Numbered from the whole stretch's first letter, positions 3,492 through 63,903 are shown. The stretch is DNA of 64,000 bases, filler included, from Malassezia furfur (GCA_052055015.1; 3 parts of 3 records of this genome joined end to end with filler, not necessarily neighbours in it), one strand, 5' to 3'. Numbers and translations: made by a program. The notes: generated by a model not told the origin, from the sequence alone.

Positions 3492-3999
3492 TTACCGCAG
3501 CGACGCGCCCTGCCCGAGGTAGTGCGTGTTCTCGTCGCCGTACTTGCGGTGCAGAATGCCGATTTTGGGCTGCGCATCCGGCGCGTGCGGCGCGAGCGAG
3601 CTCAGCGCATCCAGCACCGCCGTGCGGGTGTCGTCCGACACGTACGAGGGGTCCGCGTCCGTCTTGTCGGTCGTCGACAGAGGGTTGGCGTCACGCACCA
3701 TGTGCATCGCACTCACGAGATGGTGCTGTCGGTTAGTATGCGCAAAAACTTACATTCCAGCGGCCCTTCACCTCTTCCCAGAACGTCGGGCCTGTCGGCT
3801 GGTATGCCGAGGCGAACGACGGCGTCCGCCGCGCGCCGGTCTCCTTGTCGAATTCGCTCACGCGGTCAAATGCGTCGATATCGCGGTCCATCTTGGCGAC
3901 CATGAACTGTGTCTGGTCCTTGAATGCAGCATTGGCCGCATACAGCAGCAGGCCAGCGGTGCCCACGCCGAGCACAGTAGGGATCGCCGAGTAGGGCAT
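3492..3999 (-). CDS. Small protein with N-terminal TM segment, possibly MICOS subunit Mic12-like; 2 exons
   Basis: MPYSAIPTVLGVGTAGLLLY...EEVKGRWN joined to HHLVSAMH... by a 28-nt intron at 3726-3753 (GTAAG...CTAAC CGACAG). The N-terminal TM plus KxxWN pattern recalls Mic12/Aim5 (inference). Confidence 0.5.
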
Positions 4000-4111
4000 C
4001 AAGTGCCGAGAGGGTCAAGGGGGGGGAGAGACGAAACCGGTCCGGTGGAGGTGACCCCCCTAGGGCACGGCCCTGCTGCCGCCAACAATCCCCGCGTCGT
4101 GCGCCTTCAGC

Positions 4112-5341
4112 ATGTCGGGCACGCTGTGTCTGCGCCCGCTGGTGGTGCGGTTCACGGATGCCCACTCGGACGATGCACATCTGGACCTCGTGTATGAACG
4201 CGAGGGACACAATTGGCAGTCGCTGTACCAAGAAACGGTGCGCGACCTGAAAAACACGCTACGTGCGCACGATCCACAGCGCCAGGGCCGGAGGCTCCGT
4301 CTGATCCATTTCGGGCGCGTCCTGCCTAACAACCTGGCGCTGGCACCCTACCTAGACACTCTCGCCCAAACGAAGGCGACTGACACCGAGGAGGCGACAT
4401 GGGAACACGTTCTGCTCCAAAAGGAGGACCGCGACGCATCGCACTATACCCTGCAGCGCGTCCAAGCGCCGACGCTGAACAGCAAGCAATGGGGCAAGCA
4501 GCGTGCGGATGCAGTGCACGATGAATCTGCGCTGCTGTTCCAGCACGCGTTCGCGACCGACGTGCTGCGCCTCTCGACGGTGTACCTGCAGTGCTCTGTG
4601 GGGGCCGTCGGCGACGATGACGGCACCGATGACGCGGACCACACTGCGGCGCCCACGCGCACGTCAGAGCCGCGCGGATTTGACCGCCTTCAGTACACAG
4701 CAGGCATGTCGGCACTCGATGTACAGGTGATGCGCGAGCACTTCCACCAGCGCTCGGGTTTGTCACTCGCACGCAGTGGCGATTTGATTCGGCGCCAGGA
4801 GGAGGAGGAGCTGGCGTACACGCTCGAGGAGCAATGGATCGACAACATGGACGAAACGCCTGAGGCATTGATGCAGAGCCGGCACGCGTCGGCACAGAGC
4901 TCGTTGCTGCAAGGCTTGTTGCTCGGCTTCTTTTATCCGATCTTGCCGCTCTTTTACGCGTACGAGATCCAGCCGATTCGCTGGCCACGCGCGCCATCCC
5001 CACAGGAGGAGCAGCAGACTGAGCAGCTGTGGAGCGTAGCACGCGTCCTCTCCGACTTTCGCAACCGGCCGACGCCGGGTCCTGCGACCGAAAACGACGC
5101 GCAGTTGCGCGAAGAGGCGCAGCAGACAGCGAACCTGTTGACCGCGCTGCTGACGGCGCGGCAGGCGCAGCCGCTTCCCGACGAGGAAGAGGAAGAAAAC
5201 GACGAAGAGGTGCCTGACGCGCACGCACGGCGTCTCGCTCGGCGCGACGAGCTGGTGGTGTTCTCGGCCCATACCCATTTTGCGGTGATGGTCGGTCTGG
5301 CGATCAATGCCGTGCTGGGGATGCTACGTATGCTCTTGTGA
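4112..5341 (+). CDS. DSC3: Dsc E3 ubiquitin ligase complex subunit 3 (UBL + DUF2407 C-terminal)
   Basis: UBL-like LRLIHFGRVL, then PRGFDRL..AGMS, EEQWID, LLxGLLLGFFYP and a C-terminal TM segment, all typical of Dsc3. Confidence 0.8.
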   Translation: MSGTLCLRPLVVRFTDAHSDDAHLDLVYEREGHNWQSLYQETVRDLKNTLRAHDPQRQGRRLRLIHFGRVLPNNLALAPYLDTLAQTKATDTEEATWEHVLLQKEDRDASHYTLQRVQAPTLNSKQWGKQRADAVHDESALLFQHAFATDVLRLSTVYLQCSVGAVGDDDGTDDADHTAAPTRTSEPRGFDRLQYTAGMSALDVQVMREHFHQRSGLSLARSGDLIRRQEEEELAYTLEEQWIDNMDETPEALMQSRHASAQSSLLQGLLLGFFYPILPLFYAYEIQPIRWPRAPSPQEEQQTEQLWSVARVLSDFRNRPTPGPATENDAQLREEAQQTANLLTALLTARQAQPLPDEEEEENDEEVPDAHARRLARRDELVVFSAHTHFAVMVGLAINAVLGMLRMLL

Positions 5342-7877
5342 TGTAGATATGTACGAAGGGGGAGCGAGCACCTGATCATCTTTTGCATCGGCATTGTCAT
5401 CGTCGTCGAGCTCGTCATCGTCCAGCGCAAAGGCGTTGTACAGGTCGCGTGTCTGGACGTCGGTGGGCATCGTACCAAGCCGGATTTCGTTTTCGTCGCT
5501 CGGGAGGTATTCGTAGCGCCGCATCGTGCGCAGCCGCCGGTAGAAGAAGAGCAGCAGGCCTACGCCCACCGCCAGTGCCACGCCTGCCGCCACCGCCAGC
5601 CACGTCGAGTGCCGTGTAACGCCTGCGAGATAGCCCGTGTCCGCTTCGGGCGTCTGCACATGGCTTCCGAACGACTGGTGTGTCTCGCCCAGGCGCGTGT
5701 GGTGGTCGTCAGGGAGCGCGTGAGTGGGCTTGTTGAGCGTGAGCGTGTTGGTCGGCGTCACCTCGGGGTGGTGCAGTACAGTGCTGCTCGGTGCACCCGA
5801 GAGCGTCAGGCTATGCTCTTCGGAGCCCTCGGGGAAGTCCCATGGCTTGGCCTTGCTGGCGTCGCGCGCAGCACCCCAAAGCGTGAGCGACCACCCCGTA
5901 AAATTGGCCGGCAGCCGGTTCTCGCGCCGGGCATCTGCGTGGTCCGACACCTGGAGGCGCCAGGTGCCGAGCATGTCCTCGCCCCAGTGCTTGAGCGACA
6001 TGAATGTCCACCCGGGGAACCCATCGCCGTCCGAGTCGTAGCGCCGCGGGCTCGCCAGCACGCTGCGTGTGCCGTGGGGCGAGAAAAGCTCGACTTGCAC
6101 GTCGCCGCGCCGATCGTGCTCGATCCAGACGGTGGCGGTGACGTGCTCAAGCGACATGAGGTTCGCCTGCTCCAGCATCGCGGGCGTCACCTCGATCGGC
6201 ACCGAGCTTGTCTGGTTCAACTCGAGGCGCGGCGTGCTGGTGTTATGCCGCGGCGACTCGAGCCACGCCTGCGGCGGCACCAGCTTATGTGCGAGTGAGA
6301 CGGCGAGCAGGCGCGTCGCCTGTATCATGCCGTATCCGTACTTGTGCGAGAATTTGCGCCCGACGCCGTTCGTCTCCCAGTCGGGGTCCTCGGCATTGAT
6401 CGGCTGCGCGGCAGCAATCAGGACGTGCTGTACGTCGCGCCACGTCAGCTCGGGGCGCAGCTCCAGTACAAGCGCAAGCATCCCTGCAACGAGCGGCGCC
6501 GCAGCGCTCGTTCCACCGTGCAGCGATGTGCACTGCGGTGCACCTCCGCGTGAAATATCGGTTGTGGTGATCGCCTGGCCGGCGCCTGAGCTGTAGCTTG
6601 ACGCGATGATCGCGCTGCACATCTCCGAGTAGTACGGGTGGTGACCGAGGTGGTCTACTGCGGCAATGGTCACGGTGTAGATCGAGTTAGTGTAGCCGTC
6701 AAAGTTGCACTGGTCGTCGCTCGCACCGCCGTTGCCGCCGGCAAACACATAGATGCTCCCGTTACCGTTGCGTCCGTTGTAGATTCCGTTTAGCAGCGCC
6801 TTGGCCACCAGGCCCTTGGGCGCATCCATGCTTTTGCCATTGTCTGGCGGCCCCCAACTGCAGCTGTAGATTGCGTTGGTGTCGTAGGCAAAGTTGAGCG
6901 CCGCAGCCTCGTCCGCGTCGGTGATGGCGCCGCTCAGGATGCGCACCGCTGAGACATGTGCGTCGGGTGCGACGCCAATGCCACACATGTCGTTACGCAC
7001 TGCCGCAATTTCGCCCGCACACCGCGTGCCATGCTGGTCGTCCGACAGACGCGGCTCAGGCAGCGGCGTGTGATCGTTGAAATCATACGAGCCTTTCTCG
7101 TCCTGATGTTAGCAACACACGTACAAAGTTGGCCTTGATGTCCGGGTGTGTAAAGTCGAGGCCGTCATCGAGCAGCGACACTGTTACGCCGCGCCCCGTC
7201 GCATTGCGCCAGATTTGCCCTAGCCCAAGGTCGTGCCCGGGATCCTCGACGTTGGCAAGGTGCCACTGCTGGAAAAAAAGCGGATCATGGATCTCAAATG
7301 CGTCGCGCAGCTTGGCGCTGACATTGAGCGGCACCGGTGCACGCACGGCATGGGCGCCGCTTGCCGGGCGCATCCAGGCCTCGGTCGCCGGCACGGGCGC
7401 ACGCAGCTCGGGGTACTCATCGCGCATGGTCGCCGGATCGTAGATGACGTCGCGCTTGTGCCGCTGACGGGGCACTTGGCGCTCGACGTCGCGCAGGGCG
7501 TCGGCGATGCATGCCTCCGACACGCACGACGCACCGGTGCAGCGCTTCGTGTGCGGCGTCGTGCGGCGGCGTAGGGCCGCGTACCGCGTCAGCACGGGGT
7601 CTTGCGCCTCCGGGACTTCGGAATACACAGACCTCCGCGCAAGCGCATCGCCCTTTTCGTGCTTGAGAAGCCAGTGGTGCGGCAGGGCCCCCACCTGCTC
7701 CACGAATTCGGCGTCGAGCGCCGCGGCGACGTGCTCCGGCGTGACGTCCGCACATGCGCCGCGCGGTACAATCTCAGCCGCATAGTAATGGTGCGTGTCG
7801 TAGGTGCGCTTCTGTGGATGCGCACCCACTACCACGCCCAGCGCTCCCGCGGCGAGCGCGAGCCAACACCGAAGCAT
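5324..7877 (-). CDS. KEX2: Kexin-like subtilisin proprotein convertase
   Basis: Signal peptide, propeptide with KR site, catalytic DDG / HGTRCAGE / GGTSAAAP, P-domain and TM. A 22-nt intron at 7103-7124 (GTACGT GTGTTG CTAAC ATCAG) joins ...IKANF to DEKGSYDF. Confidence 0.95.
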
Positions 7878-9677: not shown

Positions 9678-9699
9678 TGTGCCTGCGCACTGCACGCGC

Positions 9700-11140
9700 T
9701 CAGGCCAGCAGCTTCTCCACCTGCTCGAGTACCGCACGGCGGCTCGTGCCGCCGATCGCGTTGCGACGCTCGACACTCTGCTCGGGGTCCCATACGTCCT
9801 TCACGTCCGCTTCAAATGCAGGGTGTAGCGTGCGGAAGTCGTCCAGCGTCAGGTCGGACAGCTCACATCCACGGTCCTCGGCGAGCTTGACGGCCGACCC
9901 TGAGATGTGGTGCGTCTCGCGGAAGGGAATCTGGAGGGGTGAACACGGAGACGTACGCCTTTGCGGACCAGGTAGTCGGCCAGGTCGGTTGCGAGCATAT
10001 CGGTCGTCAGCGCGGCGCGCATCTTGGTCGCGTTGATCTAGGGTCAGTTCGACGGCAGGGGCCACGTACCGACATGGTGCTCACAACACCCGTTAGGATC
10101 TTGATGCAGGCGAGCGCCGTATCGACAGAGTCAAACATGGGCTCCTTATCCTCCTGCAGGTCTTTGTTGTACGTAGACGGAATGCCTTTAAGGGACATCA
10201 TAAAGCCGGACAGGTTGCCAAACAGGCGTCCGCTCTTCCCACGCAGCAGCTCGAGACTGTCGGGGTTCTTCTTTTGCGGCATGATCGAAGAACCTGTGCT
10301 GTAGGCGTCGCTGAGCTGCACGAAACCAAACTCGGCGCTCGAGTAGATGATCAAGTCCTCGGCAATCTTGCTCGCGTGCACCGAGAAGAGCGAGCACCAC
10401 ATCAGTGTTTCAATCACAAAGTCACGGTCGGCCACACTGTGCATGCTGTTGGGTCCCACGGTCTGGAAGCCGAGGTCCTTGGCGAGTGCCGCACGGTCCA
10501 GGCCGGCGAACGGATTGCCGGCCAGCGGCCCCGCACCCAGCGGCAGCATCGACACACGCGCACGCAGCGCCCGCAGGCGCTCCACGTCATACGCAAAATA
10601 GGTCGCGTGCGACAGCAGCAGGTGCGACCAGCGGATCGGCTGCGCACGCTGCAGGTGCGTATAGCCTGGCATGAGCACGTCGACCTCCTCGCGAGCGCGC
10701 TTGGCCATGACATGAACGAGCTCGGTCGCGAGCGATTCCAGCTCGTCCAGCTCATCCAGCAGCCACAGGCGCATGTCCGTCGCGACCTGGTCGTTGCGGC
10801 TGCGACCCGTGTGCAGCTTGCCGGCGACAGGCCCAATCAGTTCCTTGAGCCGGCGCTCGTTCGCTGTGTGGATGTCCTCGTCCTCCGGCTGTACCTGGAA
10901 CGAGTTGTTTCGCCACTCCTCGCCGACCTTGGTGAGGCCATCACAGATCGTCTGTGCCTCTTCCGCGGTAAGCACCTTGCAGCCAACGAGGGCCTTGGCG
11001 TACGCTTGCGACCCGCGGATGTCCTGCGCCCACATGCGCTTGTCGTATGAGTGCGACTCATTGAACGCATGCATCACAGGGTCGGTCTCGCCCGTGAAGC
11101 GACCACCCCAGAGCTTCTTCTTCGTAAAGTCTTCACCCAT
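9700..11140 (-). CDS. ARG4: Argininosuccinate lyase
   Basis: [17 protein letters not shown] and [12 protein letters not shown] signatures. Introns at 10038-10069 (32 nt) and 9931-9956 (26 nt) restore the C-terminus ...[15 protein letters not shown]. Confidence 0.96.
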
Positions 11141-11206: not shown

Positions 11207-12498
11207 CTACTGCGGAGCGCACTGGACATTTGGTTCTCCACCGGGGTTGTCGTACGTGTCCTCCTCCGGCGCACGCATCCGGTCGTTGGCGCCAAAGTCG
11301 GACAGATCTCCGGAGGCGACATGGACATCGTCGACCACAACATCCTCTTCCTCGGGCAGGTCTTCGCGTTTGGGCGGTAGAAGTTCGCGCAAAGCCTGAG
11401 TCAGTCATGTGCACGTACCGTTTCGTCCGCAGAGCGAGCCCACTCATTCGACGGGAATTCAATCTCGTACTTGAGATAGAGATCGCCGCGGCGGTCACGC
11501 ATACGCGGGTCATACATGCCCTCCCCACGCACAACGTCTACAGTGCCAGGCCGGACGACGTCGCCGCGCTGTTTAGTCACACGCAGACGGCGACCGTCCA
11601 GGTGCGTCAGGACGGTGCGCGAGAAGCCTTGCAGTGCCTCGAGCAGGTTGATGCGTACCGTCGCGCTCAGGTCGATGCCGCGCACTTCAAACGAGGCATG
11701 CGGCGTTTGCTTCAGCTCGAAAATCACCGACGCGGGTTTCGTGTCCGGCTGCGTAAGTAGCTTGCACGTACTAGCTGATCACCCTCGCCCTCAAACACGA
11801 TGTGCTGCCCATCGTACGCACCGCGCGGGATCTCGAGGCGCAGACGCGTCTTGACCGGCACCGTGCGGTTGCCCTTGCACTTTTTGCACGCCTCCTTCTC
11901 GCGGAACTTTTTGCCAGTGCCCTTGCACTCGCTGCACTGAGCCATGCTTTGCGCAATCATTCCGTTCCCAGCCTGCCGCTGCTCAAGCACGCGGCCTTTG
12001 CCGCCGCACGTCACACAGTCTTTCGGCTGCATGCCCGGCTTGCCACCCGTACCGTGACAATGCGAGCATACCACGTTCTTCTCAAGCGCAAAGTGTGCCG
12101 TCTTGCCATTGAACAGATCCTCGAGCGAGACCGTGTAGGGAATAATGGCATCTTGCGCACGGCGTGGCGGCGGAGGACCGCCAAAGCCAAAGGAGGGACC
12201 ACCGAACATTGACGCTGCGTGAGCACCAAAACATACCAAAGATGTCGTCCATGTCCGGGGCACCGCCGCGCGGGTCGCCCCCCTCGCCGTAGCGGTCGTA
12301 TGCGGCGCGCTCGTCGGGGTCCGAGAGCGTTTCGTAAGCCGCCGAGACCTCCTGGAAGCGCACCTGCGCGGTCTCATCGCCCGGGTTCTTGTCCGGGTGA
12401 TTTGCGAGCGACTGCTTCTTGTATGCCTTCTTAATATCGGCGTCCGTCGCGTCGGGCGCGACGCCCAGCACGTCGTACAACTTGGTATCCACCACCAT
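11207..12498 (-). CDS. Type I DnaJ/Hsp40 co-chaperone (Ydj1/Xdj1-like) with CaaX box
   Basis: J-domain with HPD, CxxCxGxG zinc repeats, and C-terminal CAPQ*. Introns at 12215-12236 (22 nt), 11749-11771 (23 nt) and 11396-11418 (23 nt). Confidence 0.92.
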
Positions 12499-12557: not shown

Positions 12558-14146
12558 ATGGCCGATTTTTACGTGCAAGCGGGCCGTGCGCTGCAGGACA
12601 TCCTGGCGCGCCGCGGCTCCATCAAGGCCATCACCGCCAAGGTGGGCGAAGGAGAGGATGATGCGCGTGCAGCAGGCAACGCTAAGCGCATCTTGGCACT
12701 CGTTGTGAACACACTCTCGTTCCGGACGACGCTGCAGACCATCCTCGCCAAGGTGGACGTCGCGGCGCGCGAACCCAGGTGGTTCGGACCAGGGAGCCCG
12801 CTGAACCGCACAAAAGGCGCCCTACCGCCTCCTGCCCCCACGCTTGCCTCGTGCATTTTGCTCGTGCTTATGCATGACCTGTTGTTTGCCTCACGCGGCA
12901 TCCAGGCCGCCAAGGCCTGGCCGCCGCGCGAGCGGCTCGAGCGACACCGGTCCCAGCTTCATGCGGAGCTTGTGCGTATCCAGCTGCGGATGGGCAAGTC
13001 ACATCCAGAGGAGCTGCGCAGCGGCGCCGAGGAGCGCCGCATCGCTGCTCGTATACCCCGCTGGTGCCGTGTGAATACGCTACGTGCGACGCCGGACACG
13101 GTCATACAAATGTTGACAGAGCAGGGGTGGACCTTGGAGGAGACAAACACCATTGCGAAAGAGTACGTTCAAAGCTAATGCAGGTCGGTGTTCGTGCGAT
13201 CGCGCCATGTGGACCACGTCTTTGCGTTCCACCCTGGGGCAACGGCGCGTCTGATGCAAACGGAGCTGTACAAGAATGGCACGCTGATCCTGCAGGACCT
13301 CGCAAGTTGCTTTCCTGCCGCGGTGCTTGATCCGCTGCGTGATGGGGCAGCTGAAGTGACGGCGATGGACGCGACGTCTGCGCCCGGGAACAAGACAAGC
13401 CACCTGAGTGCGCTGATGCAGGGCCGCGGATCGGTGTGTGGATGAGACTGATGCAGTTAACGGCTTTGGAACGTGCACCACAGCGTTATGCAACGCTCGT
13501 GCGGATGTTGAGCCGTGCGGGGTGCCTTGCGCGCGAGCATGGCAATGTGCATCCAAAGAAACTGGATTTTCTCTCTTTGGCACCGGCCGAGCAAAGCGCG
13601 ATTCAGTACATGCTGTTGGATCCCAGCTGCTCTGGCAGCGGAATCGTGAATCGCTTGGACTATCTTTCAGGAAAGGACGACGAGCAGGACAACGTGGAAG
13701 AGGTGGACCCCATCGAAAAGGGCAGTGCGCTTGCGACTCGACTCGCCAACTTGGCCTCGCTCCAGGAGCACATGATCCGGCACGCGATGACGTTCCCTGG
13801 CCTCGAGCGCTTTACGTACTCGACGTGCTCGATCCATGAGGAGGAGAACGAGGCGGTGGTATGCCAGGTGCTCGCGTCGGACGAAGCGAAGCAAGGGCGC
13901 TGGCGCCTAGCACCGCGCTCCGACGTGCTGCCGACATGGCCCGAGCGCGGCCGGCCTGCGGCGTGTGGGGGTGACGAAACCCGTGCAGAGTCCATGGTGC
14001 GGTGTACGCCTGGAGGGGCAGTCGATGTTCCACCCGGTACCGTGCACGTCGAGGCCTCTAATGGGTTCTTTGTATGCTGCTTTGTGCGCGCCCCGAGCGA
14101 GCCACGCAAGAAAAAGGCCAAGCGCGCCAAGGCGGTGTCTAGCTAG
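12558..14146 (+). CDS. RCM1: 25S rRNA cytosine-C5 methyltransferase (NSUN5/Rcm1)
   Basis: [51 protein letters not shown]. Introns at 13163-13183 (21 nt) and 13434-13456 (23 nt). Confidence 0.9.
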
Positions 14147-18094: not shown

Positions 18095-20085
18095 ATGGGG
18101 TCGGACAACCGGGCGCATGTGCGCCTACAGACCTTGCTGAACGTCTCTGCGACACACCTGCGGCACGGTGATGACCAGGAGCGGAGCGCAAAGCGTATGC
18201 GTATCTCGAGCCGCCCTGCGCCCTCCGTGCCCTCTGTCGAGAAGCGCACGGAGCGCGCACCCGCGCCGCAGGAACCGACAGCCACGGTCGACGAGCCGCA
18301 GGCCGCTGACGACTCGGACGACGAGGCGGCCAGTGACATCGCCGACGCGTTTCATACCCACTTTGGCGCCGAAAGTGCCGATCTCGCCGGCATTGATACG
18401 CGCGACATCCACTGGACTGCGCCCGAGCACGTCTCAGTGCTGGGCGGCGCGTCGGTGGTGCGCGCCGTGCGGCCGAAACAAAACGACGCCGCGGCACGGG
18501 TACGTTGCTTGTTCTTACACAGCCCCATGCACGCATCTGGAACGCGTTCAAGGCCAAGTATGGGCCGGTGTCGACCGCGCACCGCGAGTGGATCGACCTG
18601 GTAGGGCGTTACGTCGACGTGTGGGACGCGCGGGTCGCGCTCGACGAGCACGATGGGCTGCGCTCGGTGCTCTCGATGCACGCCATGAGCCATGTGGCGC
18701 GCACACGCCAGCGCATCCTCAAAGACAACGAGCGCCTAGCCAAGGCGGCGGCCGCCGCCAAGGCCGACGGCCATGACGACGAGCTGCCTGAGCTGCGCGA
18801 CCAGGGCTTCACGCGCCCCAAGGTACTGCTTCTTGTGCCCTTCCGCAACACGGCAAAGGCGTGGGTGCAGCGTCTGATCAACGTGTCGGGGTGCGACCAG
18901 GTGGAGCACAAGTCGCGCTTCCAGACCGAGTTTTCGCTCCCGCCCAACGCCGTGGACAAGCTGGCAGACCCGCAGTTTGCGTCACACTACCCCGCAGACC
19001 ACCGCAAGACGTTTGCGGGCAACATTGACGACAATTTCAAATTGGGCGTGAAGCTTACGCGCAAGACGCTCAAGCTGTACAGTGCGTTTTTCGAGAGCGA
19101 CGTGATCGTTGCGAGTCCCCTGGGCCTTCGCCTGCTGATCGAAAAGGAACAGTACGTCCCCACGCACTTACACAGCGAATCCGACTATCTCTCGTCGATA
19201 GAGATGGTATTGGTCGACCAAATGGACGTGATGCTCATGCAAAACTGGGACCATGTCAAGGTACGCCGCGCCGTCCTCACACAGTTTGTGCTTGAGCGCC
19301 TGAATGCCATCCCGAAGCAGGCGCACGATACCGACTTCTCGCGCGTGAAGCCGTGGTACTTGGACGACCAGGCGAAAAACCTGCGGCAGTCGATCTTGCT
19401 CTCGTCGTTCGACGCGCCTGAATTCCGCACCCTGTTCCACCATTTGCAAAACGTCGCCGGGCGCGTGCGCACCGTCGCGGCTGTCACTGCGGAGGACGCG
19501 ACGATCGCGTCCGTCGTGCCCGGCGTGCGCCAAACCTTCCAGCGGTTCGAGTGCGCCAACGCTCAGGGCGAGGCCGACGCGCGCCTCCACCTGTTTGTGC
19601 AAAAGACATTGCCGCACCTCGAGCGGTCGGCGGTGAGTGCGACGCATACCATGATCGTCATTCCGTCGTACTTTGACTTTGTCCGCGTCGAGGATCACTT
19701 CCGCAAGGCTGGTACGCTGACGTACGCAACGCTCTCCGAGTACTCCTCGAACAAGGATGTGTCGCGTGCGCGGCAGTCGTTCTTTGCCGGCAAAAAGAGC
19801 TTTTTGCTGGTTACCGAGCGCTTCCACTTTTATCGGCGGTACATGCTGCGTGGTGCGCGCACGATTGTGTTTTACGCGCCGCCGGAGCATGCATCGTACT
19901 ACCCCGAACTGATCAATGCTGCCCTGAGCCAGCGCAGCGACGACGACGAGGTGCCGGACCCGAGCGAAATCGGCGTCCAGGTGCTGTACTGCAAGTACGA
20001 CTTGCTCCGCCTCGAGCGCCTCGTCGGCTCCGCGCAGGCGCGCCGGATGGTCACCGACGCACGCGCCTCGTGGCGGTTTACGTAG
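18095..20085 (+). CDS. UTP25: U3 snoRNA-associated protein 25 (DUF1253)
   Basis: RDQGFTRPKVLLLVPFR, GNIDDNFKLG, ASPLGLR, DYLSSIE, MQNWDH, TERFHFYRRY. Introns at 18500-18522 (23 nt), 19152-19175 (24 nt, in-frame) and 19261-19284 (24 nt, in-frame). Confidence 0.93.
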
Positions 20086-22488: not shown

Positions 22489-23763
22489 ATGGCTCGTGGA
22501 ATCCCGGGTCTTGACCGCGTTCGCGGAAAGTAGGTCGCCATGACTCACACCAGAAATGCCATCGGCACGCTCGTTCTCAGCGTCGGCGCCTTGCTTGGGG
22601 TGATCGGCTGGTTTACCTCGTTCATCTCGCAGTGTGTGGCTGAATCGCGGGACCATCTGCCGGTGCACCACGTGTGGTTCACCACCTGGGTGGACCTTGC
22701 ACTGGTCGTCGCGGTCTGCTTCCTTATCGCGGTCGGCTCAGTGGGCTTCTTCAAGCCGCTCCTCGTTCCTTTCTTGATCATTGCGATTGTGATGTCGGTA
22801 CTTGGTGCCGATCTCGGTCTGTACAGCGACTACGGCGACATGCAGGGCATGGGCGCCGGTTACCTGATCTTTGCGATCGCCGCAGTGATCTGGCTCCTGT
22901 ATCTCACCTACGCGGAGAGCACCGAAAGCGCCATCACCGGCGGCAAGCCGGCGGGTGCTTCGTTTGGCGGCGTTCCGGGTATCGGCGGCGGCATCAGCGG
23001 GATGACCAACGCCGCGACCAATGCCGGCGGCAACGTCACGGGCGGTATCTCGTCGCTCGGCAACACGGCGACGGGCGCATTCGGCGGCCTGCGCAACCGC
23101 TTCTCGCTCGGCAAGAACAAGGCCACGCAGGGCATGCAGGGCATGCAGGGCATGCAGAACCTTTCGGGCGGTGTCCCCAACGTCAGCATGGACCCCAGCG
23201 CACACGCGGCCAACATGGGTGTGCCAACGGGCGTCGTGGCGCACTCGCCGTCGGTCGATCCGTCTGCGGCGCAGATCCGCGCAGTGGACAGCTCGGTGAT
23301 GCCCGAGTCGGTTCCATCGCAGGCCTCGAACCTTTCGGCGGCCGGCATGGCGCCGAACGCGTCGGGCATGGCCCCGAGTGCCTCGGGCATGCTCCAGAAT
23401 GCGCCGACCGGCGGCCTCGACGCGAGCGCCGTGGCATCGTACCCGCCGCAGTACGCGGGCGACGGCTCGCTGGCACCCCCAATTGTGGGCAACGAGACGA
23501 TGTACTCGAGCGCGTCGCAGGCTGCTCCCTCGACCGGGTTCGCCGGCGTCGGCAGCGGCGTGTCCCCCGACAGTGCTACGCCGCGTCTGCAGCGTGCCGA
23601 GGCGCTCTACTCGTATAAGGCCAGTGAGGACGACCCCACCGAGATCTCGTTCAACAAAGGTGACATTCTTGAGATTATCGACTCGTCGGGCAAGTGGTGG
23701 CAGGCCTACCGGCCAAACGGCGAGCTTGGCATCGTGCCGAGCAACTACCTCCAGATGCTCTAA
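22489..23763 (+). CDS. SHO1: Sho1-like osmosensor (4 TM + C-terminal SH3)
   Basis: Four hydrophobic helices and an SH3 domain ([26 protein letters not shown]). The probable first exon from ATG 22489 is joined by a 24-nt stop-containing intron at 22530-22553. Confidence 0.85.
23128..23157 (+). repeat. Coding 9-bp tandem repeat (CAGGGCATG)x3 encoding QGM in SHO1
   Basis: Read directly from the sequence. Confidence 0.85.
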
Positions 23764-24222: not shown

Positions 24223-24530
24223 TTAGTGGTGGTGGTTGACGGGCTCGCCAAGGTACTCGAGCTGGTAGACTGGCGTCAGAGCAATTGGGTACGTACCACT
24301 GCCGCAGCGGGGGCAGCGCGTGTGCTCCTTCTCGAGGCTCATGTTCAGCCAGAGCGTCTCGTGCGACTCGGCAGGGAAGCCGGTGCAGCCGATGTGGTGC
24401 TCGTGGTACTGTCGTCAGACACGCGCCTATCAACATACCATGCTCCGGACCTTGATCGGGTCCTTCATGGTGCCAAGACGGTCCGCAGGCAGCGGCTCCT
24501 GCTCGAACACATCCACACCCTCGAGCTTGC
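24223..24530 (-). CDS. COX4: Cytochrome c oxidase subunit 4 (COX5B family), 3' part; 5' end lost at gap
   Basis: Not in the ORF track. Spliced translation KLEGVDVFEQEPL..GTMKDPIKVRSM/YHEHHIGCTGFPAESHETLWL...RCPRCGS/VYQLEY..HHH*, with introns at 24409-24438 (30 nt) and 24270-24296 (27 nt). Zn-binding Cys/His residues are conserved. Confidence 0.9.
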
Positions 24531-41749: not shown

Positions 41750-42666
41750 ATGGCGGACGCAGCGCACAGCGAGACGCGGCACGACGAATCGGATGAGGAG
41801 ATCGTATGTGGTGCACGCTCACGCAGGACATCATCAATGTTGAGTTTGACTTCCGCGCACCCAGCGATGTGGATTTCCAGGCACTGATCCGCCTGTTCCA
41901 GCAGCTGTTTTATACCAACGCGCCGCAGATGGACCTGTCGGCCGTCGCCGACTACGTCGTGCAGCTGAGCCAGAACCACGGCATCGGCACTGTGGTTAAG
42001 GTGGACGATATGGAGCAGATTCACGACCCCTACGCGGTCGCAAGTGCGGTGACGATTGGCGAGAAGGGCGCGACACCCGCGGCCGACCTGCTCCGTGCGT
42101 ACCTGGTCAAGCATCTCACGGGTTCGGCATCGGGCAAACCGCTGCTCGACCTCGTGCAGGGCGCGGACGCAAGCAAGCCGCTTCTCTGGTTCTTGCACGA
42201 GCGCATGGTCAACCTGCCTGCGCAGCTGTTCCCGCCGCTTCTCACGATGCTCTATGAAGAGTACGAAGAGGGCCGTCAGGAAGTGACGCCGCCCGCCCCT
42301 GCGCCGACGCACCTGCTCATCTTCTCGCGCGCATTCTCGATGGACGCGGTCGAGGAGGACACGGGCCTGGCGGGCGCACGGAAACGCCGCGCGCCCACGC
42401 ACGCCCAAGGCGACGCACAGTCGTCGCGCGGCAAGGCTGCGGCACAGAAACAGGCGTCCAAGCTCGCCGATGGTCTCGGCTCCTTCCACCCCGAGGACGA
42501 GCTGCTTGCCGAGTTTGCCACACACAAGTTCCACTTCCGCTTCCCGCCACAACCGGACGCGGCCGACACGTACGAAGCGCCCATTTTTGCGCGCATCTTT
42601 GCCATCCCCTACGCCAAGGTCCCCGCGGCTGTGGAGCGCATCCGCGCCGAGTGGCCAGCGCCATAG
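41750..42666 (+). CDS. BCP1: Bcp1/BCCIP family protein
   Basis: INVEFDF, DFQALIRLFQQLF, ERMVNLPAQL, FHPEDE. 23-nt intron at 41804-41826. Confidence 0.88.
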
Positions 42667-50072: not shown

Positions 50073-50822
50073 CTACGGGTCTACGTCCATAGCGCCACTC
50101 GCGCCCTTGCGGCGCTGCTTCTTCTTGGGCTTCTTCGTCGTCGCGCTGCCCTCCATCTGGAGACGCTGGGCGAGCGGCAGACTCGACAGGCGGTCCTTGA
50201 GCGCGGTCGCCTTGGCGGGCTTCGCCTCCGGCTGGCCCTTGCTCGCGAGGATCTTTTCCGTCTCCTTCAGGTAGCGCGCCTCGGCTTCGGCGAGGCGGCG
50301 ACGCACGGCAATAGGCAGCGATGCATCGCTGCTGCGCGCCGTCGACGACACGTCCGCACCCGCCTTGGCCTGCGCAGCAGGCGCGGCCTTGACGACCTTG
50401 GCGGGCGGCGGCATGGACACCTTGGGCGCAGGCTCGGAGCCTTGCATGGTCACCTGGAGCACGCGTCCGTCGGCAAGCACGCCATCAAACTTGCGGCATG
50501 CGGCGAGCGCGTCGTTGCGCTGCTCAAATGCAACCTGGAAGGCCACCGCGTTGCTCGCGAGGTTCGGCAGGCGGTACCCACGCACTTCGACGACGCGCCC
50601 GATCGGGTCAAACGTCAGACGCACGTCCTCGAGCGACGTGCCCTTGACGAGGTTTGCGACGACGACCCACGTTGGCCCCGATGCGCCCTTGATATTCACG
50701 CTGCGCTGCACGTCAGCTTACACTCTTGCACGTACCTCCCGCTCGTACGGTGCGCTGCGCTGCGCACCCGACGCACGGCGGCGCGGCGCACGCGCGCGGC
50801 TCTCGCGCATTTCCACGTCCAT
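50073..50822 (-). CDS. Single-RRM RNA-binding protein
   Basis: VVVANL..GTS.EDV...FDGVLADGRVLQV RRM pattern. First exon MDVEM...APYERE joined by a 30-nt stop-containing intron at 50706-50735. Confidence 0.7.
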
Positions 50823-53257: not shown

Positions 53258-54236
53258 CTAGCGGAAGCCGTCGGCGCGGCGCGCGTCGATGCCGTACTCG
53301 CCAAGCGCGGCGCTCAGGTCGTCCATAGTCAGGACCGTACGCGTGCGGTCCTGCATGTCAGTCAAATCCACATACCCGTCCAGCGCCCGGTCGCGCACGG
53401 CTGGGGCCGGCATTTGTCCGAATCCGCGCGTATTGGAACGCGTCCGACGCAATGTCCGCCACAAACTTTTCCGTAGCCAGCGCAAGTAGACGCTTGCTGC
53501 ATGTAAGCAGGAGAATACGTACAGGCGCACATCGTTGCTCTGGAAACCCGCACGCTCCAGGTAGAAGTCGGTCACCTCATCGGGGATCTGTCGCGTCAGG
53601 CTCATGTGAACGCACCAGCGGCGAGAACTGCTCCAACATGCGCAGCATGTCGGCCAGCGAACGGTCCTTGCGCGCTTCCTCGGCAGCGCGCGCATCCAGC
53701 GTACTCGGAACCGGCGCAGCCTCGACGTACCGCGCAAGGTCGGCCGGCGTCGCAACACTTTCGACGGACGTCCGCTCTGCGTCCGTCACCAGCGCAAACG
53801 CGTGCGTCTCAAAAAAGACAGACAACTCGGCCAGCTCGGTTTCCGGGGTAATGACGCGGTAGGTCTCGGGCTTCGTGGGCGCCTCCTTGTTCCCGGCGAA
53901 CGGGCGCTGCAACTCACGGAGGGGCGTGTCCAGCCGCTCCTCGGTCTCGGCAATCACGAGATCCACCATCTCAACGAATCCACGCAGCTTCTGGTCGTCC
54001 ACAATCAGTATACATTGGCCGCCATGCGCGCGCGCCATCGGCAGGGCCGACGACACGGGGGTGTCTGGCGACGCCGTCGCAGGCGGCAAAAGGTTCAGTT
54101 GGCGCACCGTGGCGCCATGGAATTGTCGCTTCAGCGCATCGCTCACTTCGAGCGACTCATCCACCGTGGGCGTCTTCTGGGGCGCAGGCACGCGGGTCTC
54201 TGGCCCCGGCGCGTCCTCCTCCATTTTGTCGCCCAT
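53258..54236 (-). CDS. TAF10: TFIID/SAGA subunit Taf10 with an in-frame N-terminal CBS-domain pair
   Basis: PL/IPDEVTDFYLERAGF...RL/KRLLALATEKFVADIASDAFQY...VLTMDDLSAALGEYGI. Introns at 53588-53615 (28), 53497-53522 (26) and 53351-53375 (25). Exon 1 encodes CBS-like repeats. Confidence 0.88.
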
Positions 54237-57086: not shown

Positions 57087-58205
57087 CTACTCCACATGCC
57101 CGTGCGAATCGCCCAGCATCAGCTGCAGCAGCCGCGGGGTGATCGAACCCAACACTACCAACGAAAGACAGTGGGTCGTCCGGTGTGTCAAACTCACATC
57201 CTGGGATGGCATCTGTACACGCATCCCTGACACGCGCGGCGCAGGCGACATGGTGCGCGCATGAATCGGGTGGTCATGATCGAGCGGGTGGTGGGAATGC
57301 CCGCCGGCATGGGTGCCTTCGCTCGCGTCCGCCGTGAGCTCGAGCACGGCGTGCATCGCGACATAGAGGAACGTGCCACCAGAAAAGCTCAGGATCGCAC
57401 CAATGTCGCGCGCATTGATCGTCGCTTCCGCTCCGCCCGTGACGCGGAAGACGAACTGGATGGCCGCATACGTCGAGATGGCACCCACGGGCGTCGCAAG
57501 ACTGAACACCAGGATTGCCCACCGGATATCGGTCCGACTCAGCTGCAGCGACATGAGTAATGTACAGGTGCCGATCGACGCGGGTGCTTTGTGGACCATG
57601 ATGGCCAGCACCACGACAATGCGCAGCGAGGAGTCGGGGCTGTCGACCGACGCACCCAGTGCAATGCCGTCGGCCAGGGCGTGGATAATTAGGCCAAGTA
57701 GGCTGCTCAGCGCGCCCAGGAAGTTGGTGCTGGACGGTAGCCAGCCGTTATTTTGCTCTTCATCAATCGAGTACCAGGGCACGTCATCGTCCGTCTGTTC
57801 CAGGTCCGAGACGCGGTTGTGAGCGTGCGAGTGTGTGCCGCGCCGCTGCATTTTTGCCATCATTTGCCGGTCGACGCTGGGTTAGGCACAGGGCATAACA
57901 TACATGAACATTAACAAAAAGCCCGACAGCAGGCACGCTGCAATCAAGTCTTTCGAGGTGAGGTGCGTATTGGATTCCCGCACCGGCTCGCCGTCGCGGC
58001 ATAGGTTGCCCCCTTTGTATACGCTCGCAATGCCCTCGGGAATCACCACCGTAAGCGCTGCGCCGAGTAGCAGTCCCGAGCCCCACAGCTCCAGCATTCG
58101 CAGTCCATTCCGCGAGAGCTGAAAGAAGAGGGGCAGCGTCCCGATGGCGTAGGTACCCAACGCCATCGCGACGCACACCCCCGCCAGCCCCACGACGTCC
58201 CACAT
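57087..58205 (-). CDS. ZIP-family metal transporter (Atx2/ZIP9-like)
   Basis: GLLLGAALTVVIPEG, GLIIHALADGIALG, HKAPA, FSGGTFLYVA and His-rich loops. 27-nt intron at 57877-57903. Confidence 0.9.
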
Positions 58206-58391: not shown

Positions 58392-59472
58392 TTAGAGGCG
58401 AGCCGAAGGGCCGTTGACATAGGCATACGTGCTGCGGATGCGCTCCTCAGCTTCCTTCTCGATGCGCGCGACGAGTTCCTTGCACGTAGGCTGCGTAAGT
58501 CACCACATACGTACAATATCGTGGATCAAGCCAAGCGTCTGCCCTGCCGTCCAGACGCCTGCATCTGGATCACCCTTTGTGTACACGGTGCGGCCGCGTT
58601 GACCAGAAACGAGCGGCTGAATCTCCTTGAATTCGACGTGCCGTGCCTCCAGCTCGAGAACCTCCTTGGTAATTTTGTTTTTGAACACGCGCGTCGTGTT
58701 GCGCAGACTGCGCAGAATATGCGCCGTATCGCGCTCACCCGACTGCACAATAACCTGCTTGATCTTGTCGTCGATCTCACTCTCCTTCGTGGCCATGAAA
58801 CGCGTACCCATGTTCGCACCCACGGCTCCAAGCGCCAGCGTTGCAGCCAGTCCACGCCCATTCGCGACACCACCGGACGCAATGAAAGGTGCCTTGACCT
58901 GGTCGGCCGCCAGCGCAAGCAGCACAAGCCCACCAATGTCGTCCTCACCCGGGTGTCCTGCGCATTCCCCTGTGTGTTAGTGCCGTGGTGATGCCAAGGT
59001 ACTTACAGCCATCAATGCTCAGCATGTCTGCACCCAGACGCAGCGCGGTCTGTCCATGACGGATGGCCGTACACTTGTGGATTACGAACGCACCGGCGTC
59101 CTTAAGAATCTTGATGACCGGCCCCGGATTGTTCCCCGCAGTCTCAAAAATACGCACGCCAGCTTCAAGAGCCGCCCGCGCATACCCTTCATAGTCCGGC
59201 GGAACAACTGCAGGGAGAAGAGTGATGTTGACGCCGAAAGCGCCATACTTGGTGCGCTCTTTGGCAATCTCGGGGTCGATAAGCGAGCGCGCGTGCTCAA
59301 TAGCTCGCTTGAGCTCCTCCGGCGAAGGCTGGGTCAGGGCGGTCATGATACCCAGTGCACCAGCGTTTGAAGCAGCAGCCGCAAGGGCAGGCGTGCCAAC
59401 CCACTGCATGCCGCCCATCACCAGCGGCACACGCAGGCCCAGCGTTTCAGTCAGGTACGTCTTAATCGGCAT
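58392..59472 (-). CDS. Nitronate monooxygenase / 2-nitropropane dioxygenase family flavoprotein
   Basis: GGMQWVG, DG/WECAGHPGEDD, ASGG..GRG, MGTRF. Introns at 58970-59006 (37) and 58491-58514 (24). Confidence 0.9.
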
Positions 59473-59557: not shown

Positions 59558-60308
59558 ATGAATATTTTTCGGCTGTTAGGTGACCTGTCGCACATTGCGT
59601 CGATCCTGATTTTGATCCATAAGATCACGACGTCACGGTCAGCGCGAGGTAAGAGCGTGCGCACTGACAGCAGGCATTTCGTTCAAGACACAGGCGCTGT
59701 ACGCGACCGTCTTTGTCGCGCGCTACCTTGCGCTGTTTTCGCCCCCTGTGTTCTACCTGATTGTCATGAAGATCTTCTTCCTGGCAAGCTCATTCTATGT
59801 GATTTACTTGATGAAGTTCAAGTTCCGGTACGTGCGTGACGACTTATGCAGCTCGCGCGTGGAAGTGGACATTGACACGATCCGGCTTGAATATTTGCTG
59901 GGCGGGAGCGCAGTGCTGGCCCTGCTGTTCAACTACAAGTTTACTTTGCTCGAGATCCTTTGGTCGTTCAGCATTTTCCTGGAGGCTGTCGCGATCCTCC
60001 CGCAGATGTTCCTGCTGCAACGCCTGGGCGAGGCTGAGACGATCACGACGCATTACATCTTTGCACTCGGCGCTTACCGCACCATGTATCTGTTGAACTG
60101 GGTGTACCGGTACGTTGCATCAAAGCTGACGCAGTCTCATCTTCGAACACAAGCACCATTTCGACTACATTGCGTTCATTGCCGGTCTCGTACAGACCGG
60201 GCTGTATGCGGACTTTTTCTACAGTACGTTGTGCACTTAGCACCATGAACTAACGCAGTCTATTACGAGAAGGTCCTGCATGGCAAAAAATTCGAGCTGC
60301 CTGCGTGA
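59558..60308 (+). CDS. ERD2: ER lumen protein-retaining (HDEL/KDEL) receptor
   Basis: MNIFRLLGDLSH, GISFKTQ, LEAVAILPQ, YRTMYLLNW, KFELPA*. Introns at 59649-59673 (25), 59828-59851 (24), 60110-60134 (25) and 60224-60258 (35). Confidence 0.95.
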
Positions 60309-60521: not shown

Positions 60522-60616
60522 TTCCCAATCCGGGAGTCGAACCCGGGTCTTGTCGGTGCGCTCCACAGTACGTGACTTGTGAGAGCGACATGTACTAGCC
60601 GTTGTACTAATTAGGA
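60522..60616 (-). tRNA. tRNA-Glu(CTC) with 23-nt intron
   Basis: Acceptor stem TCCTAAT/ATTGGGA, anticodon stem TGTCG/CGACA, anticodon CTC at 60581-60583, intron 60557-60579 after position 37, T-arm CCGGG-TTCGACT-CCCGG. Mature length 72 nt. Confidence 0.95.
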
Positions 60617-60694
60617 CGGCGGTTGGAGGGGATGCGTGTTTTTGCGCATGTAACTGGATGGGTCCATCTATACGGGCTATGCGTGCCACCGGGC

Positions 60695-62543
60695 CTATGA
60701 GGTTTCCTGTACAGACTCGTTCTCCGCCTCGAAGCTGCTCTCGGTGGACAGGCGCGACACATCGCCGGACCCATTTTCGGACCGCGCCGGCATCCCGCCG
60801 AGCGCCATTGGAAGCTTGCCCAGGTAGCGCGGCGGATTGCCGCACCGGTCCTTGCCAAAGCTGATTTTCATCGACTGATAGTCTTTGTGGTACTTGAGTC
60901 CCTCGATGCATTTGATCGCAGACTGGATGTTGAGGAAGTTGGCGAACGCCTGGGGTCAGTGTGGGGATACGTACGCAGTTTCGTTCCTTTAACGTGTTGA
61001 CCATTTCCAGCTCGCCGTACTGGGACAAGTCGGCGCGGATCTTGTCCTCGTTCATCATCTCGGGGTTGTCAATGTTGCCCAGGTACACGTTACGCGATGC
61101 ACCGCTCTGCACTGCAAGTGCCATCGCCGGACTCAAAGCACCCGAGGGCCGTCCCCATCCGATTTTGAGCCGCCGGTTGTGGATGGTGATGCCGGTCAAC
61201 GACGCCATATGGAAGAAGGCGAGTGCGGCATTGGCATCGATGAACGTGACAAATGCAATGTGGCGGTCAGGCATGTACCGGATATATTGCAAAATACCGC
61301 CCCGGACATGGTTGCAAATGTCTTCGGCCGTGGTGTCGGGGTGGAGATTGCCCAGGTACACGGTACGGTTGCCAAACTGGTGGTACTGCGGCTCAACGTT
61401 GCTCACCGGCGACCGCCCATCACTGTCTTCGGACGAGGCCCGGCGCTGCGGCGGGGTCCCTTCAAACATCCCAACGTTGTTTGAGCCGTAGTTCATGTAA
61501 CCTGTAGGGTAGCCGAGCCACGTCGCGGCCGCAAGTCCCATGGCGGCAGCCTGGTGGTTGTGTGCCTGGATCTGCTGCTGTCCCTTGGGCACGTAGGCAC
61601 ACCGGTCTTTGCCGTAGTTGATGCGCTTCCCGCTCCACTTGGGCTCGGTCGGAAGCGTGGCGACAGCCTTCATAGCGGTCTGAATCGAGAGGAAGTGCAC
61701 AAATGCAATGGCTTGGTCGCGCACGATTTTTACCTGGTCGATGGGCCCGAAACGTCCCAGATCGTTACGCAGGTCTTGCTCAGTGGTGTTTTCGTCAAGT
61801 TGGCCAATGTATACATTTCGTGAGGCTTGGTGTTGCTGCACAGCCATAACGACGGCGGGCGGAGGCACCGACGGTTTGCCCCACCCAATCTTGAGTTCCT
61901 GGCCGTGCAGTGAAATGTGCCGCACGCTAGAGTCTGCATGGAAAGCGGCGGCCACCTGCGCGCTCAGGAACGAGATGAACGCGCAGTTTTTGTCGGGCAG
62001 CAGTCGGACATTCTCAATCGGGCCAAACTTGACCAGGCTGAGAAGCTCGTCGACGGACGCCTCGGCGGGCAGATTGCCCACGTACACGGTGCGCCCAATG
62101 GGCACCATCGGCGGCATCTGTACACGCGCTGCCATGTTGCTAAACTCGGGCATGCTCTGAGCGAGAGGTGCACTGTACGGCGGGACATAGCCCATGGGTA
62201 TCCCTGTCGACATAGGCATCATGTAGGGCATCGATGCTCCCCAGCCTGGTACAACAGGCGCAGGCATCGGCATCCCCGCTGCCGCAGGCTGTAAGGGCAT
62301 CACCGGCGCAAAACCCGGCGCGTACGCCGCGGTCTGAGGGCCGGGTGTCACCAACTCCGCATTGGGCGCCTGGCCAGCTCCGTCGGTGTGCTGGAGATGG
62401 AGGGTATCCATAGATGTCGCCAGTGATGCGTCCGTGTTGTGCGCATTTGCTTGGCGGGTATCTGAGGGCGATGGGTTCGCTGGCCCACGGCCGGGCGACC
62501 CTGGCGTGCTGGAGGCACGCGACGCATTGCGGTCTCCGGACAT
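60695..62543 (-). CDS. MRN1: Four-RRM RNA-binding protein (Mrn1 / S. pombe Nrd1-like)
   Basis: RTVYVGNL, SRNVYIG, NRTVYLGNL, SRNVYLGN; KIGWGK and YGKDRC motifs. A 25-nt intron at 60950-60974 restores RRM4. Confidence 0.85.
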
Positions 62544-62850
62544 GCACGTGAATGAACGGCAGGACTTGCGCGAAAAGAGGCCAGAAGCGTTCCGTTCGAG
62601 TGCGCCGTGTTAAAGGCGGAGCGCAAGTTTCTTGCGTCGGACTACGTGCAGCGTCCGATGCGTCTGCCTGAAAGCGGAGAGCCGACGACACTTTGGGCGT
62701 GCCCGGCGTGTTACTCAGCCACGTGACAAGCAAGTGTCCGGGGAAATCAGGGCAGGTCGGAGGTAGCCAAGCATTTTTGGCCAGACTTTGGAGAACGAGC
62801 GCGTGCGGCTACAGACCGAAGCAACGTATATACAACGGCACGGTGTCTGT

Positions 62851-63903
62851 CTACTTTTTGATCGTATCCGTGAGAGAGGGCATGTCTGTCTTTTCGATAA
62901 AGTTCTTGACCTTCTCGTAGATCGTGAACACCACCGCTTGGCCAGGTGCCACACGCGCCACACGCGGGGTAATGCCCTTCCAGAAGGCACTCACACCCTC
63001 CTGCGCAAACATCTCGCGAGACACTGGTGGTCAGTACATTGCGTATCCACGTACCCTTCAGCACACGGCCCAGCGCAGTCTCGCCAGGCTCCTTGCTCGC
63101 CTTTTGGATACGCGTCTTGATCGTGTCGATCGGAGCGTTCGAGAAGGGACCCAGCGCACCCGAGATCAGACCGATCGTCGCAGTCTCGTACGAAGGCAGC
63201 TCATCGACCTTCTGCAGGCGCTGCGCAAGCGCCTTCAGCTCCTGGTACGCCGTGAAGTTGGCCGCCTGGTTGGTGGCCTGGCGCGCGGCCGTGAGGGCCA
63301 CACCACGGTAGAGCGTGCTAAAGCCCTCCTCGCGAATGATGGTGTAGAGAGCGTGACCGGCGTTGCGGTAGCGCGGGATCTCGTTGGGGTCCGCGAGCGA
63401 GTGCTGCTGCGCCTGCAGCCGGATCTTGACGACCTCCATGGGGTTCACGACGAGGACCGCCTCCGTCGTACCGGCACCGAGACCAGCTGCACATGTTAGA
63501 TCGGCTTTCCGACGTACCCAAAAAGACACCCTGCGGCGAGGTGACGCCCGTCTCGCGGTTCGCAAGCCAGTTCTTGTACTGCTCGAAACTCATGAAACGA
63601 ATGGCCATCTTGGGCACAATACCCGCCACGACAGCACCGAGACCCTTGTACAGGCCGAGGGGGCTCTCACGGCGGATGATGTGCATACCGGTGGCGAAGA
63701 AGCCACGCGGCTTCTCGCCGTGCGCGCGGCCACGGCGGGAAAGCTGCATGCGCACCTTGATGGTGTCGAGCGCTGATGGGTGAGAATGGGCGCCCCGCGC
63801 TGCGATACGTACGGTGACAAGTGCATGCCTCAGCAAAGCCGGCGATACCACCGGCGATCAGCTGCGTAGCAGCAGACGTTTTGGGCTTGTTGTTCACTGC
63901 CAT
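62851..63903 (-). CDS. SFC1: Mitochondrial succinate/fumarate carrier
   Basis: Three carrier repeats (PLDTIKVRMQ, PMEVVKIRLQ, PIDTIKTRIQ), PKMAIRF, RQATNQA. Introns at 63773-63812 (40), 63487-63517 (31) and 63024-63054 (31). Confidence 0.9.

Follow-up and report, generated by a model that had tools for sequence, protein, structure and literature searches.

What kind of splicing underlies the very short segments that interrupt protein-coding genes in a 64,000-nucleotide stretch of DNA attributed to Malassezia furfur (hereafter the window, meaning this whole stretch)? Between positions 3726 and 63812 we identified 39 introns with GT..AG ends, 38 of them well supported and one ambiguous, with a median length of 25 nucleotides (nt), a mean of 26.1, a minimum of 21 and a maximum of 40; 24 of the 39 are 25 nt or shorter and 33 are shorter than 30 nt. 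The original prediction had described 39 introns with the same span, length range and median, and had proposed that the lineage uses a modified route of spliceosome assembly. Its counts were reproduced by our independent gene models, and the introns it named, 13163-13183 (plus strand, 21 nt) and 7103-7124 (minus), 12215-12236 (minus) and 33759-33780 (plus; 22 nt each), are present exactly as written. Since their removal restores conserved proteins, and since the splice signals occur far more often than by chance and specifically on the gene strand, we consider these segments very probably to be ordinary major-type (U2-dependent) GT-AG introns of Malassezia that have shrunk to near-minimal length.

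To build the intron set, all 145 stop-to-stop open reading frames (ORFs) of at least 170 residues were scanned with Pfam, and genes were found on both strands. Several Pfam domains turned out to be split over adjacent ORFs in different frames, among them Peptidase_S8 (kexin), DnaJ_C, NSUN5/RsmB-F and Ras (Miro GTPase), and likewise TAF10, NMO, Mito_carr and NIF. Gene models were obtained with a dynamic programme that rated codons by a log-likelihood trained on the window, added a score for each GT..AG candidate and allowed introns of up to 120 nt. The compact models from this run contained 36 introns of 21-40 nt on real genes, plus one 52-nt candidate; the set of 39 consists of these 36, two in-frame 24-nt introns of the UTP25 gene that the programme had read through and that were recovered by homology, and one ambiguous 5' intron. 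The 38 firm introns are spread over 20 of the 37 gene models; the ambiguous one would add a 21st model, where it sits at the 5' edge. When introns of up to 400 nt were permitted, the programme produced false long introns merging neighbouring genes and antisense ORFs, and a naive ORF-joining screen was uninformative in this GC-rich DNA, yielding 8799 'good' GT..AG pairs of all lengths.

Within the coding regions of the gene models of the window, no intron longer than 40 nt was supported, as had been predicted. The only longer candidate left on a real gene, the 52-nt segment 40329-40380, was rejected: its removal deletes NIF profile positions 30-52, and the NIF/CTD-like phosphatase gene concerned (39975-41016, minus strand) has a one-base frame slip in a G5 run near 40393-40397, which is either an assembly indel or a sign of a pseudogene, and not an intron. 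The segment 24785-24810 was likewise discarded as an intron, the frame being open through it.

The anatomy of the introns is stereotyped. All 39 begin with GT and end with AG, and the donor hexamer is GTACGT in 25, GTATGT in five and another GTRNGN in nine, giving GTAYGT in 30 of 39; position by position, G1, T2 and G5 are invariant (39 each), with A3 in 37, C4 in 28 and T6 in 36, so that the set conforms to the extended 5' splice-site consensus GTRNGT. A branch-like motif, recognised by pattern alone, is CTNAY in 38 introns and TTCAC in one, the commonest pentamers being CTGAC (11), CTCAC (9), CTAAC (8) and CTTAC (7), with four others occurring once each. The putative branch A stands at -6 in 21 introns, -7 in eight, -8 in six, -9 in two and -10 in two, and is preceded within the intron by 15-31 nt (mode 17). 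Between it and the AG lie 3-7 nt, so that a polypyrimidine tract has no room, and acceptor position -3 is C in 38/39. These counts bear out the layout described earlier (a GTACGT donor, a short spacer, CTNAY and then YAG, with no polypyrimidine tract). The G+C content of the introns is 54%, against 64% for the window. Retention would cause a frameshift or a stop in 34 of the 39; twelve lengths are divisible by three, and therefore no depletion of such lengths is visible at this sample size.

Subsequently, the signals were compared with chance expectation. The strict motif GTACGTN{3,22}CTNAYN{0,8}YAG matched the window 25 times against 0.43 expected, and its GTATGT version six times against 0.20 expected; taken together, the 31 matches compare with about 0.6 expected, roughly 50 times chance, and in 100 dinucleotide shuffles neither motif ever came up to its observed count. 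Every one of the 30 strict matches, which represent 29 distinct introns, lies in the sense orientation of a gene model, with no match in antisense, and the strand of most genes was set independently by Pfam matches on plain ORFs. A chance origin of the intron signals is excluded. Relaxed-motif matches that were not adopted number 24 in sense, many nested in adopted introns, and 22 in antisense, and look like chance because the two counts are similar.

As to the type of intron, no donor of the 39 is GTATCC or begins with AT, whereas U12-type introns have ATATCC or GTATCC donors and a TCCTTAAC branch site, and nothing in the sequence would point to a U12-type or non-spliceosomal mechanism. The lengths agree with the very-short-intron class of Malassezia, near or below 30 nt at about one per gene. 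Splicing of these introns would draw on three signals: a strong 5' splice site, GTACGT or GTATGT, expected to pair with U1 and then U6 small nuclear RNA (snRNA); beyond a donor-to-branch spacer of 4-15 nt, the CTNAY motif, presumably for SF1/BBP and U2; and a CAG acceptor 3-7 nt beyond the branch A. Without a polypyrimidine tract, the 3' site is probably the first AG past the branch, and the tightness of the signals may offset the short length.

The introns are given below by position in the window, with strand, gene and the observations on which each call was made; strict motif refers to either form above, and profile numbers are positions in the named Pfam profile before and after the junction.

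3726..3753, minus: 28-nt intron in a small protein gene (3492-3999); GTAAGT..CTAAC..CAG, in-frame stop if kept; motif and frame only.
7103..7124, minus: 22-nt intron in the KEX2-type kexin gene; Peptidase_S8 profile 24 to 32 (the latter at residue 3 of exon 2); strict motif.
9931..9956, minus: 26-nt intron in the argininosuccinate lyase gene; ASL_C2 profile 15 (end of exon 2) to 16 (start of exon 3); branch TTCAC.
10038..10069, minus: 32-nt intron in the argininosuccinate lyase gene; links the Lyase_1 exon with the ASL_C2 exon; strict motif.
11396..11418, minus: 23-nt intron in the DnaJ/Ydj1 gene; junction gap-free in 7/8 homologues; splicing restores a CaaX-like C-terminus.
11749..11771, minus: 23-nt intron in the DnaJ/Ydj1 gene; DnaJ_C profile 55 to 62; gap-free against 8 homologues.
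12215..12236, minus: 22-nt intron in the DnaJ/Ydj1 gene; gap-free against 8 homologues.
13163..13183, plus: 21-nt intron GTACGTTCAAAGCTAATGCAG in the RCM1/NSUN5 methyltransferase gene; in-frame TAA, gap-free against 5 orthologues, strict motif.
13434..13456, plus: 23-nt intron in RCM1/NSUN5; Methyltr_RsmB-F profile 33 to 37; gap-free in 4/5 orthologues.
18500..18522, plus: 23-nt intron in the UTP25 gene; strict motif; links the ATG exon to the main ORF.
19152..19175, plus: 24-nt in-frame, stop-free intron in UTP25; the 8 encoded residues wholly or partly absent in 15/16 homologues; strict motif.
19261..19284, plus: 24-nt in-frame, stop-free intron in UTP25; 8 residues absent in 16/16 homologues, within a conserved block; donor GTACGC.
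22530..22553, plus: 24-nt candidate at the 5' end of an SH3 membrane-protein gene; GTAGGT..CTCAC..CAG; ambiguous.
24270..24296, minus: 27-nt in-frame intron in the COX5B gene; strict motif.
24409..24438, minus: 30-nt intron in the COX5B gene; the exon before it matches COX5B profile 48-77, and the exon after it matches 79-113, beginning with its residue 2.
28183..28207, minus: 25-nt intron in the Gem1/Miro GTPase gene; Ras profile 55 to 60, with 4 residues between.
28791..28812, minus: 22-nt intron in a membrane-protein gene (28688-30839); strict motif and frame join.
30036..30058, minus: 23-nt intron in the same membrane-protein gene; GTACGC..CTCAC..CAG and frame join.
30160..30187, minus: 28-nt intron in the same membrane-protein gene; strict motif and frame join.
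33759..33780, plus: 22-nt intron in the SCC2/NIPBL gene; shift between two long ORFs.
35226..35246, plus: 21-nt in-frame, stop-free intron near the SCC2 C-terminus; strict motif only.
38954..38977, plus: 24-nt intron in a CHCH-domain protein gene; in-frame stop if kept, strict motif; CHCH in exon 2.
39851..39873, minus: 23-nt intron in a P-loop kinase gene; the P-loop ORF has no upstream ATG, and only removal of the 23 nt brings an ATG in frame.
41804..41826, plus: 23-nt intron in the BCCIP gene; strict motif; joins an 18-residue exon 1 to an exon starting at BCCIP profile 1.
50706..50735, minus: 30-nt intron in an RRM protein gene; in-frame stop if kept, strict motif.
53351..53375, minus: 25-nt intron in the TAF10 gene; TAF10 profile 37-67 before, 76-100 after.
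53497..53522, minus: 26-nt intron in the TAF10 gene; TAF10 profile 35 to 37 over the junction.
53588..53615, minus: 28-nt intron in the TAF10 gene; next exon begins at TAF10 profile 15; donor GTGCGT.
57877..57903, minus: 27-nt intron in a ZIP zinc-transporter gene; in-frame stop if kept; Zip profile 8-88 before, 163-292 after.
58491..58514, minus: 24-nt intron in the nitronate monooxygenase gene; in-frame stop if kept, strict motif.
58970..59006, minus: 37-nt intron in the nitronate monooxygenase gene; NMO profile about 166 before, 169 at residue 4 after.
59649..59673, plus: 25-nt intron 1 of ERD2; 11/12 fungal ERD2 proteins gap-free at the junction.
59828..59851, plus: 24-nt in-frame intron 2 of ERD2; ER_lumen_recept profile 55 to 60; if kept, 8 residues absent in 12/12 homologues.
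60110..60134, plus: 25-nt intron 3 of ERD2; splicing yields the public M. furfur protein, and none of 12 fungal ERD2 proteins has a gap at the junction.
60224..60258, plus: 35-nt intron 4 of ERD2; same observations as for intron 3.
60950..60974, minus: 25-nt intron in an RRM protein gene; strict motif.
63024..63054, minus: 31-nt intron in a mitochondrial carrier gene; next exon begins at Mito_carr profile 52; strict motif.
63487..63517, minus: 31-nt intron in the mitochondrial carrier gene, between carrier repeats 1 and 2; strict motif.
63773..63812, minus: 40-nt intron in the mitochondrial carrier gene; next exon begins at Mito_carr profile 26; strict motif.

Homology, in the form of Pfam profile continuity or alignment with homologues, supports 26 of the 39 introns. 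For ERD2, the model spliced at all four introns is identical in 213 of 213 residues to the NCBI M. furfur protein (P0004). The eight DnaJ/Ydj1 homologues come from four kingdoms and include Histoplasma, Rhizopus, a mollusc and a plant, and the RCM1 orthologues in the comparison are all Malassezia-like. In SCC2, the exons flanking 33759-33780 end at about residue 864 and start at about residue 875 of the human NIPBL chain 7w1m_E, some ten residues apart, the end of exon 1 being extrapolated from query residue 398, which corresponds to chain residue 762. The spliced RRM model carrying intron 60950-60974 ends at 60695, short of a transfer RNA (tRNA) gene at 60522-60616 into which the unspliced ORF would run.

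Several points weigh against reading the whole set as ordinary spliced introns. Twelve introns (those starting at 3726, 18500, 28791, 30036, 30160, 35226, 38954, 39851, 41804, 50706, 58491 and 60950) were called from motif and frame alone, and the candidate 22530-22553 is ambiguous because an internal ATG offers an intron-free start. The sense-strand count is partly dependent on the models, which had themselves used the splice motif, and the branch point was set by motif only. Five introns are stop-free multiples of three, so that their retention would still yield protein, and excision from the RNA of the window's genes is what we infer from the DNA sequence.

Some of the last-mentioned five segments (19152, 19261, 24270, 35226 and 59828) could also encode short lineage-specific insertions, in at least part of the transcripts, an idea in keeping with the frame staying open on retention in 5 of the 39 and with the position of 19152-19175 in a variable loop of UTP25. 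All five nevertheless carry full splice signals, and the encoded residues are missing in 16/16 homologues at 19261, in 12/12 at 59828 and in most at 19152. The public M. furfur ERD2 model leaves out 59828-59851, and COX5B fits its profile only without 24270-24296, since with the segment kept 60 residues fall on just 50 profile positions; insertion is thus quite improbable. Frame changes due to assembly indels or pseudogene frameshifts do have one true case in the window, the one-base slip of the NIF phosphatase, and the window is a draft of at least three contigs. However, such errors would not yield segments of 21-40 nt of the form GTAYGT..CTNAY-N-CAG at about 50 times chance and on the coding strand only, and as a general explanation they are effectively refuted.

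A further possibility, which had been put forward for this DNA, is that the splicing machinery or its order of assembly is substantively altered. A modified assembly route is a reasonable hypothesis because of the extreme geometry, with the branch A at -6 in 21/39 introns and 15-31 nt before it, and C occupies donor position +4 in 28/39. A +4 C donor would mismatch the usual U1 5' end; +4 donor mismatches are tolerated in other fungi. A hypothetical machinery of this kind would have to cope with 15-17 nt from donor to branch and 3 nt from branch to AG, and could do so through a U1 5' end fitting GUACGU, loss of polypyrimidine/U2AF recognition, or binding of U1 and U2 in sequence and not simultaneously, none of which we regard as likely. 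Put more generally, the geometry may lie below the limit presumed for a simultaneous U1-U2 cross-intron complex and, together with the nearly uniform, palindromic donor GUACGU, might reflect co-evolved changes in snRNAs or proteins, a doubtful but tenable proposition; candidates, equally tentative, would be a U1 complementary to GUACGU, recognition that needs neither U2AF nor a polypyrimidine tract, or dispensable second-step factors. Atypical donors with a co-evolved U1 have been reported in Entamoeba (10.1101/2022.06.08.495308), which resembles the window in its near-uniform, unusual 5' splice-site consensus; in Entamoeba a matching U1 change accompanies that consensus. Against an altered machinery, all intron signals of the window are canonical in kind, and our literature search found no paper on changed splicing factors in Malassezia. 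We therefore regard this explanation as unlikely on balance and retain the view that these are U2-type introns of near-minimal length; if it were true, Malassezia would be a genetically tractable fungal model of the minimal spliceosomal intron.

Very short introns are a genus-wide trait of Malassezia, documented by RNA sequencing (RNA-seq) and proteomics in M. sympodialis and M. restricta. The suggestion that ultra-short introns might be novel here thus did not hold, as introns of this size and the hazard they pose to annotation are already known: the M. sympodialis and M. restricta sets are in print and NCBI's M. furfur ERD2 has the same four introns. Passages of PMC5389616 describe for M. 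sympodialis a curated annotation of 4493 genes and 5350 introns with a mean of 30 base pairs (bp), 5271 (99%) of them backed by RNA-seq, and 829 peptides that map to splice junctions; an earlier annotation made without RNA-seq had 3462 introns with a mean of 65 bp and 48% support, and 76% of the RNA-seq junctions were new. For M. restricta, Table 1 of PMC9241646 gives an average of 37.2 and a median of 30.0, PMC6473144 mentions that Malassezia annotators used a minimum intron length of 20 and later 15, and a review refers to 'very short introns' in Malassezia genes (PMC7426719). Overall, passages of PMC5389616, PMC6473144 and PMC9241646 depict sets much like ours: GT-AG introns at about one per gene, with a mean or median near 30 nt, confirmed by RNA-seq and by peptides across junctions and called by pipelines with a minimum intron of 10-20 nt. 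The window (M. furfur clade, 64% G+C) differs in a slightly shorter median of 25 at n=39, and these passages are without branch-site spacing or a donor consensus. In the literature searched we found no study of Malassezia that analyses the spacing of the branch site, the donor consensus or the make-up of the spliceosome; a length plot in the supplement of PMC5389616 may already show the lower bound.

Introns of similar size occur in unrelated lineages: they measure about 25 nt in Paramecium, 15-16 nt in Stentor and 18-21 nt in the Bigelowiella nucleomorph, and tiny introns are also found in microsporidia. The window introns share with those of ciliates, nucleomorphs and microsporidia the size class, signals that fill most of the intron and the absence of a polypyrimidine tract, but ciliate introns are AT-rich whereas those of the window have 54% G+C. 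The likeness appears apt for size and would imply no new system. Within fungi the contrast is one of length, relatives of Malassezia having introns of about 50-60 nt or much longer according to passages of PMC8476143, which give mean lengths of 63 bp for Cryptococcus, 397 for S. cerevisiae and 426 for Pseudozyma hubeiensis. The set also bears, like the 'minimal intron' set of PMC4675715, on the lower length limit of GT-AG introns: passages of that paper derive a 'physical limit' of 30 bp from reviewed RefSeq records, and with 33 of 39 window introns below 30 nt this limit therefore fails for Malassezia.

The original prediction had also warned that gene finders mis-annotate such genes. This is supported by public models of relatives that look mis-spliced and by the 48% confirmation of the pre-RNA-seq set in the passages of PMC5389616. 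The M. brasiliensis ERD2 protein (P0005) lacks 23 residues at intron 1 and that of M. globosa (P0019) has just 160 residues, the M. yamatoensis RCM1 protein (P0183) has an insert of 9-10 residues at intron 2, and the M. yamatoensis DnaJ protein (P0124) lacks about 45 residues after intron 3; all four look mis-spliced. In related Malassezia, ORFs called without splicing retain short segments at some of these intron positions, for instance a 24-nt in-frame segment at ERD2 intron 2 (P0008, P0012).

Metagenomes were also scanned for relatives of ERD2. Among 80 loci none was near enough for Malassezia, the best being 69% identical. A rough spliced alignment with our own script (loci L029, L037, L039, L047, L059 and L066) placed fungal introns of 50-62 nt no more than a codon away from the window positions after residues 30 and 82, and introns of 32-116 nt near residue 168. 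The 32-nt intron of L039 reads GTACGT..CTCAC..CAG. Longer introns at matching positions suggest that the ERD2 introns of the window are ancestral introns that shrank.

The window itself, judged by its sequence, is Malassezia DNA of the M. furfur clade, the closest named ERD2 matches being those of M. furfur, M. brasiliensis and M. obtusa. Two spacers of the form N44-TTAATTAATTAA-N44, at 24531-24630 and 49102-49201, indicate that three contigs of a draft have been joined, and the two joins cut the COX5B, DUF3295, protein kinase and SMC genes. The 37 gene models cover 58,284 of 64,000 bases (91%). Gene density is very high, with gaps often below 100 nt, as in the divergent pair 16026-18023 (minus) and 18095-20085 (plus), 71 nt apart. 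The gene for NTR2, a spliceosome disassembly factor (20092-22242, minus), is without an intron of its own in the gene model. An Rfam scan of the whole window at the gathering threshold gave no match, and therefore no snRNA gene lies in the window. In the tRNA gene at 60522-60616 (minus) the anticodon loop is interrupted by about 25 nt, which presumably form a tRNA intron, and ARAGORN left the anticodon unnamed; the gene scored 50.8 bits in a local Rfam scan and was missed by the whole-window scan.

For the genus, the practical meaning of these introns is that many genes will come out truncated, frameshifted or padded whenever Malassezia is annotated without RNA evidence or with the shortest permitted intron set higher than about 20 nt, a hazard already familiar to groups annotating these genomes. 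Our literature search found no paper treating the tight intron geometry of Malassezia as a minimal-intron test case. Malassezia is a free-living, culturable and transformable basidiomycete (passages of PMC7426719), and with a branch A at -6 preceded by only 15-18 nt the question of how small a spliceosomal intron may be could become testable in such a yeast, which we offer as a lead and not as a finding.

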